2,863 nt of DNA from Escherichia virus K5. The position numbers were made by a program, and so were the translations under genes. The notes beneath the pieces were generated by a model. It made no database searches. It was not told the origin of the DNA and was given only the letters and a program-made list of their open reading frames with translations. The DNA is taken from the sequence record Y10025.2. One strand, 5' to 3'. Numbering within the stretch: position 1 is the stretch's first letter; every line of letters begins with the position of its first letter. Positions 1 to 2,863 of this stretch are shown one piece after another.

Positions 1-98
1 GATCACCTGTGAATAAGTTTCTAGAAGTTCTGGCAGGTCTTATTGGCCTGCTTGTCTCTGCTAAGAAGAAACAAGAAGAGAAGGAGGCACCAAAGTGA
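1..98 (+). CDS. 3' end of an upstream gene, truncated by the window start (codons in phase with position 3); visible C-terminus ...SPVNKFLEVLAGLIGLLVSAKKKQEEKEAPK*
   Basis: Only frame open from the window edge (frame 1 stops at 10..12, frame 2 at 14..16 and 62..64). Ends at TGA 96..98. Hydrophobic stretch followed by a Lys/Glu-rich tail. Function not assignable from 31 codons. Confidence 0.4.
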   Translation, partial: SPVNKFLEVLAGLIGLLVSAKKKQEEKEAPK

Positions 99-232
99 AG
101 CGAATCATGTTAGTGACCAACCCTTCTGATTGGTTCGCTGACCACTTCCGGGTGTCAGCAGGCGTTACCAGAGAAAGCAATGGTGAAACCTCTGAGGCCG
201 ACGCTGACGGCAGTTTACGAGGTAGACGATAA
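95..232 (+). CDS. Hypothetical small protein, 45 aa, GTG start (VKRIMLVTNPSDWFADHFRVSAGVTRESNGETSEADADGSLRGRR)
   Basis: Perfect Shine-Dalgarno AAGGAGG at 81..87, 7 nt before GTG 95. GTG 95..97 overlaps the upstream stop TGA 96..98 (GTGA), an arrangement typical of translational coupling. Stop TAA 230..232. Not on the supplied ORF track; no homology recognised. Confidence 0.3.
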   Translation: MKRIMLVTNPSDWFADHFRVSAGVTRESNGETSEADADGSLRGRR

Positions 233-437: not shown

Positions 438-2336
438 ATGGCTAAATTAACCAAACCTAAGACTGAAGGAATCTTGCATAAAGGACAATCTTTGTATGAG
501 TACCTTGATGCGAGAGTTTTAACATCAAAGCCGTTTGGTGCTGCAGGTGACGCCACTACTGATGATACGGAGGTTATAGCTGCTTCACTAAACTCTCAAA
601 AAGCTGTCACAATCTCAGACGGTGTATTCTCTAGCTCTGGTATTAATAGTAATTACTGTAACTTAGACGGTAGGGGTAGTGGTGTGCTAAGTCACCGTTC
701 CAGTACAGGTAACTACTTAGTATTTAACAATCCACGTACAGGTCGCTTAAGTAATATTACGGTAGAAAGTAATAAGGCGACTGATACAACTCAGGGACAG
801 CAGGTATCTCTTGCTGGTGGAAGTGATGTTACTGTAAGTGACGTTAACTTCTCAAACGTTAAAGGTACTGGTTTCAGTTTAATCGCATACCCTAATGATG
901 CGCCACCTGATGGACTTATGATTAAAGGCATTCGAGGTAGCTATTCCGGCTATGCTACTAATAAGGCAGCCGGATGCGTACTTGCTGACTCCTCAGTTAA
1001 CTCCCTCATAGATAACGTCATTGCTAAGAACTACCCTCAGTTCGGAGCAGTAGAGTTGAAAGGTACAGCCAGTTACAACATAGTCAGTAATGTTATAGGG
1101 GCAGATTGCCAGCATGTAACTTACAACGGCACTGAAGGGCCAATAGCCCCTTCTAATAACCTTATCAAGGGGGTGATGGCTAATAACCCTAAGTATGCAG
1201 CGGTTGTTGCAGGCAAAGGAAGTACGAACTTAATCTCAGACGTGCTCGTAGATTACTCAACTTCTGATGCTAGGCAGGCTCATGGTGTTACCGTAGAAGG
1301 GTCTGATAACGTCATAAATAATGTGCTTATGTCAGGATGTGATGGTACTAACTCTTTAGGACAAAGGCAGACTGCTACAATTGCACGCTTTATAGGTACA
1401 GCTAATAACAACTATGCGTCTGTATTTCCTAGCTACAGTGCTACAGGTGTTATTACTTTCGAATCCGGCTCTACCCGTAACTTCGTAGAGGTAAAGCACC
1501 CTGGCAGGAGAAACGACCTTCTCAGTTCTGCTAGTACTATTGACGGTGCAGCTACTATTGACGGCACTAGTAATAGTAACGTAGTGCACGCACCTGCCTT
1601 AGGGCAGTACATAGGTAGTATGTCAGGTAGGTTCGAATGGCGGATTAAGTCCATGTCACTCCCTTCAGGCGTTCTTACTTCTGCTGATAAGTACAGAATG
1701 CTTGGGGATGGTGCTGTATCATTAGCTGTAGGTGGGGGTACTTCTTCTCAAGTTCGCCTATTTACTTCTGATGGTACTTCTCGGACAGTGTCCCTCACCA
1801 ACGGTAACGTGCGTCTTTCTACCAGTAGCACAGGCTATTTGCAGTTAGGTGCTGATGCAATGACCCCAGATAGTACTGGTACATACGCATTAGGTTCCGC
1901 CAGTCGAGCATGGTCTGGCGGTTTTACTCAAGCAGCATTCACTGTTACCTCAGATGCTCGGTGTAAAACAGAACCTCTTACTATCTCAGATGCCTTACTG
2001 GATGCTTGGTCTGAAGTTGACTTTGTGCAGTTTCAGTATTTGGATCGTGTTGAGGAGAAGGGTGCAGACTCAGCTAGATGGCACTTCGGTATCATCGCTC
2101 AGCGAGCTAAGGAGGCTTTCGAACGTCACGGTATAGATGCACATCGCTATGGCTTCTTGTGCTTCGACAGTTGGGATGATGTATACGAGGAAGATGCCAA
2201 TGGCTCTCGTAAACTGATTACACCAGCAGGTTCCCGCTACGGTATTCGTTACGAGGAAGTACTGATATTAGAGGCTGCGTTGATGCGGAGGACTATTAAG
2301 CGTATGCAGGAAGCACTAGCTGCCCTTCCTAAGTAA
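438..2336 (+). CDS. kflA: Tailspike protein, capsular-polysaccharide depolymerase (K5 heparosan lyase KflA-like), 632 aa, with C-terminal auto-cleaving chaperone module
   Basis: Complete 632-aa ORF with RBS and dedicated phage promoter. Residues 31-50 KPFGAAGDATTDDTEVIAAS are the N-terminal signature of right-handed parallel beta-helix depolymerases (pectate-lyase-like tailspikes). A Ser/Thr/Gly-rich stalk precedes a C-terminal segment matching the endosialidase/T5-fibre chaperone family. The gene symbol is from memory of K5 lyase, not from a search. Confidence 0.9.
   Translation: MAKLTKPKTEGILHKGQSLYEYLDARVLTSKPFGAAGDATTDDTEVIAASLNSQKAVTISDGVFSSSGINSNYCNLDGRGSGVLSHRSSTGNYLVFNNPRTGRLSNITVESNKATDTTQGQQVSLAGGSDVTVSDVNFSNVKGTGFSLIAYPNDAPPDGLMIKGIRGSYSGYATNKAAGCVLADSSVNSLIDNVIAKNYPQFGAVELKGTASYNIVSNVIGADCQHVTYNGTEGPIAPSNNLIKGVMANNPKYAAVVAGKGSTNLISDVLVDYSTSDARQAHGVTVEGSDNVINNVLMSGCDGTNSLGQRQTATIARFIGTANNNYASVFPSYSATGVITFESGSTRNFVEVKHPGRRNDLLSSASTIDGAATIDGTSNSNVVHAPALGQYIGSMSGRFEWRIKSMSLPSGVLTSADKYRMLGDGAVSLAVGGGTSSQVRLFTSDGTSRTVSLTNGNVRLSTSSTGYLQLGADAMTPDSTGTYALGSASRAWSGGFTQAAFTVTSDARCKTEPLTISDALLDAWSEVDFVQFQYLDRVEEKGADSARWHFGIIAQRAKEAFERHGIDAHRYGFLCFDSWDDVYEEDANGSRKLITPAGSRYGIRYEEVLILEAALMRRTIKRMQEALAALPK
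1533..1568. repeat. In-frame imperfect 18-bp tandem duplication inside the tailspike stalk
   Basis: agtactattgacggtgca (1533..1550) followed by gctactattgacggcact (1551..1568); the core tactattgacgg recurs exactly 18 nt apart (1535..1546 and 1553..1564), encoding STIDGA/ATIDGT. Confidence 0.6.
1953..2333 (+). other. C-terminal intramolecular chaperone / autoproteolysis domain (peptidase S74-like) within the tailspike; predicted cleavage between Ser505 (1950..1952) and Asp506
   Basis: Motif S-D-A-R-C-K-T-E-P then LDAW, HFGIIAQ, a conserved Cys and a C-terminal helix EAALMRRTIKRMQEALAAL, the pattern I recall from the K1F endosialidase chaperone domain. Placement at the extreme C-terminus after a triple-beta-helix-like stalk fits. 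Confidence 0.65.
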
Positions 2337-2341
2337 GCAAC

Positions 2342-2366
2342 AGGCAGTGCGTAAGCACTGCTTTTC
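2342..2366 (+). terminator. Intergenic stem-loop with GNRA tetraloop and U-tract: candidate partial terminator or RNA-processing/stability hairpin
   Basis: Perfect 7-bp stem GCAGTGC (2344..2350) / GCACTGC (2355..2361) around loop GTAA, extendable by A-U and G-U pairs at 2342..2343, followed by TTTT (2362..2365). Lies 6 nt after the tailspike stop in the 85-nt spacer 2337..2421. Confidence 0.55.
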
Positions 2367-2410: not shown

Positions 2411-2417
2411 AAGGAGG
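2411..2417 (+). promoter_or_regulatory. Ribosome-binding site of the downstream tail gene
   Basis: AAGGAGG at 2411..2417, 4 nt before ATG 2422. Confidence 0.7.
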
Positions 2418-2421
2418 TTAC

Positions 2422-2863
2422 ATGCTACAAAGATTAAGCACCAAGTTGATACAGTATAATGGTGAGAAATTACATACATTAATAGAGCCTTTACTTGAAG
2501 AGGTTAATCCCATTATCCGTATACCAGAAGATTACCCTTCGCTGTATGCGGTTGGTGAGTACCTTACTACTGTAAGCTATGATAACCAAGCAGTAGTAGT
2601 TGAAGTGGCAGCTGGTACTTACAGAGAAACTAAGTCACTACATGAAGTATTTGGAACTAAGTTTGGTAACGGTCGCATACAGATAGTTGGTAAAGGTGTA
2701 GATGTCACTACCTTTGAGTTCTTGAAATGTGATGGAATATATGCAGGACATGGTACTTGTTTTGGTCATGCACCACAGTATCCTGTAAGTGGCGGTGACA
2801 TCCATCCTATCTTTAAGAATTGCACACTTAGTGGTATTAACCGAGATGATGCCCTAGATGATC
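2422..2863 (+). CDS. Second tail-protein gene, 5' portion only (147 codons, continues past the window end); likely an alternative receptor-binding protein of unknown specificity
   Basis: Strong RBS, ATG start, no stop through the window end (MLQRLSTKLIQYNGEKLHTLIEPLLEEVNPIIRIPEDYPSLYAVGEYLTTVSYDNQAVVVEVAAGTYRETK...). No phage promoter of its own, so probably co-transcribed from the promoter at 345..367. Function inferred from position only; no catalytic motif recognised. Confidence 0.75.
   Translation, partial: MLQRLSTKLIQYNGEKLHTLIEPLLEEVNPIIRIPEDYPSLYAVGEYLTTVSYDNQAVVVEVAAGTYRETKSLHEVFGTKFGNGRIQIVGKGVDVTTFEFLKCDGIYAGHGTCFGHAPQYPVSGGDIHPIFKNCTLSGINRDDALDD

Follow-up and report, generated by a model that had tools for sequence, protein, structure and literature searches.

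Coliphage K5 orf523 is probably a second tailspike gene directed at the Escherichia coli K95 capsule

The DNA of Escherichia virus K5 deposited as Y10025.2, a stretch of 2,863 bases that is referred to here as the window, carries behind its K5 lyase gene the beginning of another reading frame, which raises the question of what this second gene encodes and which receptor its product recognises. A first-pass annotation, which was made from the letters alone, had proposed a second receptor-binding protein of unrecognised specificity. In the present work, we compared the gene with those of related phages, predicted the fold of its product and typed the capsule loci of the bacteria in which homologous modules reside, and we consider it probable that orf523 encodes the second tailspike of a podovirus of the K1-5/SP6 type, which binds and cleaves the K95 capsule and thus adds to the K5 lyase specificity of the phage.

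The first tailspike gene of the window encodes the K5 lyase KflA (Table 1), which starts exactly with the adaptor-docking heptapeptide MAKLTKP (438-458), matches the tail spike family PHROG 14895 and ends in a Peptidase_S74 chaperone domain (Pfam PF13884, E=1.5e-14). Its counterpart in the K1-5 record, gp46, is annotated as 'K5 lyase', and the DNA of the two genes is about 98% identical. The end of a lysis region precedes KflA, and just 5' of the lyase gene, at 335-357, lies ATTTACTGGACACTATAGACGAG, of which K1-5 and VEc3 have nearly identical versions and which we take to resemble a promoter of an SP6-type phage RNA polymerase. The window was matched by 108 phage records, the 30 listed being mostly Vectrevirus (K1-5-like) with an identity of 95-98%, and at least 80% of the query was covered in 32 phage records. 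It is probably a cloned kflA fragment of phage K5A; Y10025.2 is given as the KflA accession in a review. The tetranucleotide GATC is present at both termini (1-4 and 2860-2863), as in a Sau3AI or MboI fragment.

Table 1. Features of the window around the two tailspike genes
Feature	Position	Strand	Remark
K5 lyase KflA, 632 aa, first-slot tailspike	438..2336	+	ORF and homology
Hairpin GCAGTGC-GTAA-GCACTGC (2344-2361) followed by TTTT	2344..2365	+	Between the tailspike genes
Shine-Dalgarno sequence AAGGAGG	2411..2417	+	4 nt 5' of the ATG; read directly
Putative docking peptide MLQRLSTKLIQ, codons 1-11	2422..2454	+	Alignment with four relatives
Linker, codons 12-30, poorly conserved; predicted short helix at residues 17-24	2455..2511	+	
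Beta-helix N-terminal cap and first rungs, codons 31-147	2512..2863	+	Predicted

The second reading frame starts with the ATG at 2422, begins with MLQRLSTKLIQYNGEK... and stays open through the last base, 2863, over 147 sense codons, while the minus-strand frames beneath it reach just 31-55 aa; the 147-residue ORF beginning with MLQRL that had been described earlier was therefore borne out by direct reading. It can be identified as the 5' part of orf523, a gene that has been deposited without a name: in tblastn and blastn, the fragment agreed at 100% with the initial 442 bases and residues 1-147 of AF322018.1, a record from 2001 entitled "Coliphage K5 orf523 gene, complete cds". Because of this identity, the sequence of the full protein ("ORF P", 523 aa) was available for analysis up to its stop codon, an extension that the first-pass annotation had recommended. 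The Shine-Dalgarno sequence is invariant in five phages (K5, K1-5, VEc3, LL11 and PDP21P6), and a ribosome-binding site is annotated at the equivalent position of the LL11 record. The hairpin between the two tailspike genes, which an inverted-repeat scan scored on the minus strand only, is identical in sequence in K1-5, VEc3, LL11 and PDP21P6; it is terminator-like and may function as such, a terminator being annotated at the corresponding point of LL11.

The position of orf523 in the genome is that of the second tailspike of its relatives. From the stop codon of the lyase to about codon 6, the DNA is 97-100% identical to that of K1-5, VEc3, LL11 and PDP21P6, after which, in an alignment of the five phages, the similarity collapses abruptly behind codon five or six. 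The match to the window ends at 2433-2444 in every one of the 30 records listed, and identity with the relatives stops at about 2438-2460, which places the recombination junction at or just before the linker. On the other side, the 163 bases that follow the orf523 stop codon in AF322018 belong to a conserved small gene, designated '48' in the K1-5 record, which comes after the second tailspike in K1-5, VEc3, LL11 and PDP21P6 alike (4/4). Since the DNA identity with more than 30 relatives stops in codons 5-7 and resumes at gene 48, orf523 has the borders of a second-slot cassette. PDP21P6 (4023-5819 of L002) and PDP21P3 have a longer start in common with K5, MLQRLSTALVRY, with shared DNA to about 2460, and continue with a body that is different again (598 aa), which indicates that the junctions in this slot are not fixed but differ by a few codons.

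The short stub that orf523 shares with these phages had previously been likened to the N-terminus of the K1E endosialidase. PMC6872550 quotes Leiman et al. (2007) to the effect that MAKLTKP docks the K5 lyase on the adaptor gp37, while the endosialidase uses a second gp37 site via the undecapeptide MIQRLGSSLVK. The N-terminus of orf523, MLQRLSTKLIQ, aligns with this peptide of K1-5 gp47 over its entire length, and so the shared stub comprises 11 residues and not five. All five second-slot spikes fit the pattern M[IL]QRL[GS]xxL[VI]x, those of PDP21P6, VEc3 and LL11 being MLQRLSTALVR, MLQRLGSKLVS and MLQRLSAYLVK, respectively; the K5 peptide agrees with that of K1-5 in 5/11 positions and with that of PDP21P6 in 8/11. 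The N-terminal comparison that had been suggested thus speaks for a shared adaptor-binding stub, and the 97-100% identity of the DNA up to about codon 6 shows that the resemblance results from shared descent rather than chance. By analogy with K1-5, the undecapeptide of orf523 would dock on the tail adaptor of K5, the gene for which lies beyond the window, K5 being represented in the collections by two short records only.

Behind the stub, the protein belongs to no named family in the collections that were searched. In Pfam, nothing rose above the threshold, Beta_helix (PF13229) reaching only E=0.22 and a score of 11.6 bits where 25.9 is required; of the family described below, only 2/10 members matched this model, with a best E of 2.7e-5. 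No PHROGs family was matched, and the best results of a profile search against the PDB had E>0.2. A phmmer match in the PDB to isovaleryl-CoA dehydrogenase (E=9e-4) was treated as chance because this is an alpha/beta dehydrogenase, whereas the matching stretch is modelled inside a beta-helix. When the 147-aa and 523-aa sequences were used as tblastn queries against 50,697 phage records, many of which contain endosialidases, the K5 record alone was returned and no endosialidase; nor did Pfam find a sialidase domain, in line with the earlier statement that no sialidase could be recognised. Unlike in the lyase and the endosialidase, the C-terminal Peptidase_S74 domain (PF13884) was absent from orf523 in the Pfam search.

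The same early reading had also seen no beta-helix motif, and in this respect it was contradicted by the structure prediction for the full protein. An AlphaFold2 model of the monomer, which was run on an alignment of 10 sequences, had a mean pLDDT of 85.9 and a pTM of 0.83, and consisted of disordered residues 1-16, a short helix and a regular right-handed parallel beta-helix that starts at residue 31 and ends near residue 500. The beta-helix begins inside the window, where residues 31-120 are modelled with a pLDDT of 82-96, compared with 36-64 in the linker. The last 23 residues are conserved and yet disordered in the monomer model; the protein is presumed to be a homotrimer. The fold matches were headed by Andhra gp15 and the Vag8 adhesin, followed by mostly active depolymerases, epimerases and glycosidases, with the adhesins pertactin and Ag43 also among them, while a Foldseek search against viral models returned generic beta-helix or tailspike matches only.

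The family of the orf523 body is very rare. Among 5.8 billion clustered proteins, we found one variant with 99% identity and nine homologues with 48-66% identity, and when 1.84 billion representatives were searched exhaustively with a profile, just five sequences had E<1e-30, the other 52 matches (E from 1e-15 to 1e-3) being generic beta-helix proteins that point to no particular enzyme class. The nine homologues cover residues of about 31-523, their BLAST homology beginning at residues 31-34, and the alignment of 10 members has 118 invariant columns, many of which are Asp, Glu, His or Arg. Their N-termini, on the other hand, are wholly different and correspond in Pfam to the P22 Head_binding domain (E=5.7e-67), Phage_tail_fib (1.3e-29) or Tail_spike_N of the TSP1/Gp66 kind (1.8e-15). 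The contexts are just as diverse, comprising a baseplate cluster of a metagenomic phage, in an E. coli prophage the position beside the lysis cassette, just before the holin, and the final gene of P22-like prophages. To judge from these sequences, the body of orf523 is a horizontally exchanged cassette, which unrelated phages and prophages carry behind different anchors to the virion. One homologue, P0002 (8001-10028 of L003), belongs to a contractile-tail cluster, where it is flanked by a sheath-initiator gene and Baseplate_J, and its N-terminus of 180 residues, which had no match in Pfam, may be a further type of anchor for this module.

A possible receptor was indicated by the bacteria in which the module resides. 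When 5,426 complete E. coli genomes were searched with blastn, only two contained the module, K56-43-un from urine in Greece and E400634 from stool in Kenya, in both cases as the tailspike of a P22-like prophage. Between these spikes the identity is 98.9%, compared with 62% between them and orf523. The prophages appear to be independent: one is inserted at ybhB/bio and the other at argW, and the stretches that were fetched (13.4 kb and 7.4 kb, both ending at the tailspike gene) have in common only a segment of about 2 kb (98.3% identity), which covers this gene. The O-antigen locus of K56-43-un has the wzx and wzy genes of O75, and that of E400634 is composed differently, wecB and an EpsG-type polymerase being among its genes. 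The O75 O-antigen, which had been considered as the receptor after the first lysogen, was dropped in view of the different O locus of the second. Region 2 of the group-2 capsule (kps) locus, by contrast with the O loci, is the same in both lysogens, with an identical cytidylyltransferase protein (one RefSeq accession), a WcbI-family acetyltransferase of 530 aa and a polymerase of 1,112 aa, the K56-43-un copy of which is split by frameshifts. In this strain, the K95-type polymerase appears as three ORFs (39581-42923 of L014) and the O75 wzy is likewise annotated as frameshifted (29770-30844 of L011); these frameshifts could be assembly errors or could mark a strain without capsule and O-antigen.

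The capsule type of this locus was determined by comparison with related locus types in the complete genomes of strains 042 and DLI.6n, using the pairwise identities that the kTYPr paper (PMC13171606) gives within the set of K74, K109 and K95. According to that paper, region 2 of K95, whose reference strain is O75:K95:H5, has three genes, and K95_7 is a protein of 530 aa. Our identity counts (Table 2) include the stop codon, and DLI.6n was used for the polymerase while TUM14771 was left out owing to a frameshift. The control pair, 042 and DLI.6n, reproduced the published K74-K109 values exactly in 3/3 genes, and the DLI.6n polymerase, at 1,113 aa, has the published length of K109_8. In the lysogen locus, two of the three genes gave precisely the K109-K95 values, and one residue separated the remaining gene from its published value. 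Together with the 530-aa acetyltransferase, this assigns both lysogens to the K95 genotype, the call being a match to published pairwise identities and not to the K95 reference sequence. A polymerase gene of the K95 type occurs in 7/5,426 complete genomes, so that both lysogens would share this genotype by chance with a probability of about 2e-6. As further results of this typing, the published identity values place kps region 2 of the enteroaggregative strain 042 in the K74 type and that of DLI.6n, ERP001 and TUM14771 in the K109 type.

Table 2. Observed identities of kps region 2 proteins and the published values for the capsule types
Pair	Protein	Observed	Published pair	Published (%)
042 vs DLI.6n	Polymerase	950/1114 = 85.278%	K74-K109	85.278
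042 vs DLI.6n	Acetyltransferase	515/531 = 96.987%	K74-K109	96.987
042 vs DLI.6n	Cytidylyltransferase	227/232 = 97.845%	K74-K109	97.845
Lysogen vs DLI.6n	Polymerase	876/1114 = 78.636%	K109-K95	78.636
Lysogen vs DLI.6n	Acetyltransferase	514/531 = 96.798%	K109-K95	96.798
Lysogen vs DLI.6n	Cytidylyltransferase	226/232 = 97.414%	K109-K95	97.845

The argument from lysogens to capsule follows the logic of the P22-like prophage tailspikes of the CUS-3 type, in which a capsule-specific module is joined to a P22 head-binding domain and the lysogens make that very capsule; in CUS-3, a review describes the module as a K1 endosialidase, whereas that of orf523 belongs to a different, unannotated family. In our case, the sample consists of two lysogens, and the capsule that a host makes today need not be the one for which its prophage spike is specific. 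The association aligns with the literature on the phage itself, since a passage of the review PMC7344395, citing Nimmich et al. (1991) and Nimmich (1994), describes capsule disruption by phage K5 in strains of either K5 or K95; this statement concerns the whole phage, and relating it to orf523 presupposes that the K95 work of the 1990s was done with the phage sequenced here. Taken together, the lysogen association and the literature suggest that the K5 copy is most probably specific for K95. The K5/K95 activity of the whole phage was published before, and what is new here is the comparative-genomic support for K95. The earlier label of unrecognised specificity consequently holds for Pfam, PHROGs and the PDB, which leave the protein unnamed, but no longer for its target, for which both the review and the genomes point to K95. 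ORF P is also reportedly among the suggestions of Scholl et al. in 2001, as a possible K95 tail protein.

We consider it rather unlikely that orf523 is a second-slot tailspike for another glycan, such as the K74 or K109 capsule, an O-antigen (O75) or an unknown one, with the K95 activity of the phage coming from elsewhere. With an identity of only 62% to the prophage copies, the K5 protein could differ from them in specificity, for example towards K74 or K109, all the more so as the flanking genes of the K74, K109 and K95 loci are 96-98% identical and the polymers are therefore probably alike; moreover, one lysogen is O75, an O-type that is often paired with K5 and K95. However, the module was absent from all seven K74-type or K109-type genomes among the 5,426 searched, and the two lysogens differ in their O-antigen clusters while having the same K locus. 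Phages of the K1-5 type also have two spike slots only, the other being occupied by the K5 lyase, and the passage in PMC7344395 reports a dual K5/K95 activity for phage K5.

It is still less probable that orf523 is a binding-only or vestigial spike that sits on the adaptor site without depolymerase activity, in which case it would resemble the truncated protein of K1E, which according to a review is retained as an inactive second protein. No catalytic motif was recognised in the sequence, nor a match to an enzyme family of CAZy or Pfam, and beta-helices such as Vag8, pertactin and Ag43 also act as pure adhesins. Yet orf523 is of full length, its family has kept 118 invariant columns across 10 members and persists in five or more phage backgrounds, the fold matches that follow Andhra gp15 and Vag8 are mostly active enzymes, and K95 depolymerase activity is among what the cited part of PMC7344395 reports for phage K5. 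That the gene is non-structural and merely happens to lie downstream of the lyase is highly improbable: while it lacks a PHROG or Pfam assignment, the docking undecapeptide is conserved, the gene occupies exactly the cassette position, the predicted fold is of the tailspike type and the homologues are joined to P22 head-binding, Tail_spike_N and tail-collar-fibre domains. The different enzymatic or binding module in the second tail slot that the first-pass annotation had envisaged is thus what the position between the K5 lyase and gene 48, as well as the tailspike homologues, argue for.

A second tailspike with K95 specificity would operate as follows. The K5 lyase gene and orf523 would be co-transcribed from the promoter-like element at 335-357, with read-through of the hairpin, and orf523 would be translated from its own strong ribosome-binding site. 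As in K1-5 and K1E, the first 11 residues would dock the protein on the second site of the adaptor, and past a linker of about 20 residues, some 470 residues are predicted to form the right-handed parallel beta-helix of a presumed trimer. This beta-helix, the proposed K95-capsule binding and depolymerase module, which would start at codon 31 and continue beyond codon 147, may bind and cleave a second capsule type, most probably that of E. coli K95, in which case adsorption and tunnelling by the phage would extend from K5 capsules to those of K95. The K95 capsule contains beta-Kdo-furanose and lacks a 4-linked uronic acid, which makes a glycoside hydrolase seem more likely than a lyase. We know of no sequence family or solved structure for the chemistry of cleaving the ribofuranosyl or Kdo-furanosyl linkage of K95, and it is conceivable, if somewhat doubtful, that orf523 and its relatives form a new glycoside-hydrolase family that cleaves this linkage.

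The closest parallel is the endosialidase of K1-5 (gp47) and K1E, which has the same gene position, upstream hairpin and ribosome-binding site and a homologous undecapeptide, and whose attachment to gp37 and role in host range are presumed to be the same. Beyond residue 11 or so, the bodies are unrelated: orf523 has 523 aa compared with 811 aa in K1-5 gp47, and has neither the sialidase domain nor the Peptidase_S74 chaperone. Within the same phage, KflA (PDB 2x3h) is likewise a beta-helix tailspike with a short N-terminal peptide, and would use the same adaptor as orf523. In Andhra gp15 of a Staphylococcus phage (PDB 8egr), a beta-helix with putative activity likewise follows a short segment for attachment, but the protein is only 15% identical to orf523, its host is Gram-positive, its ligand is wall teichoic acid and, unlike orf523, it attaches by a coiled coil to portal and collar. 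Among the coliphages studied by Nimmich, which include K5, K20 and K95 phages, the K95 activity of phage K5 would correspond to the product of orf523; in the portions of this literature that we could draw on, these depolymerase activities have apparently never been tied to a gene.

Although orf523 has been unnamed in GenBank since 2001 and neither Pfam, PHROGs nor PDB sequences give it a name, it is the expected kind of protein at the expected place. If the K95 reading is true, phage K5 has a dual specificity like K1-5, and its module would provide the first depolymerase sequence for a Kdo-furanose capsule. It would then serve as a ready K95-specific reagent, with which K95 capsules of extra-intestinal E. 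coli could be typed or stripped, as well as a portable host-range cassette. Beyond this case, orphan phage spikes can be assigned receptors from prophage tailspikes and the in-silico K types of the lysogens that carry them.

Two smaller observations concern the flanks of the tailspike genes. The variant with 99% identity to orf523 is carried by a Logan contig of SRR8048111 (L022, 1634 bases), which ends 34 bases 5' of the variant's start and 28 bases 3' of its stop; such ends would match the assembly graph of related phages that carry different cassettes between shared flanks. Additionally, K1-5 and VEc3 lack single bases that are present in the window at about 90, 117 and 361. Of these, the base near 117 shifts the frame of the homologue of gene 45, which encodes a lipoprotein-like protein (VKRIMLVTTLLIGSLTTSGCQQ... 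in K1-5) whose annotation differs among the relatives, and this results in two overlapping ORFs in the window (95-232 and 180-305), which possibly reflect an error in the old sequence or a real disruption of the gene.
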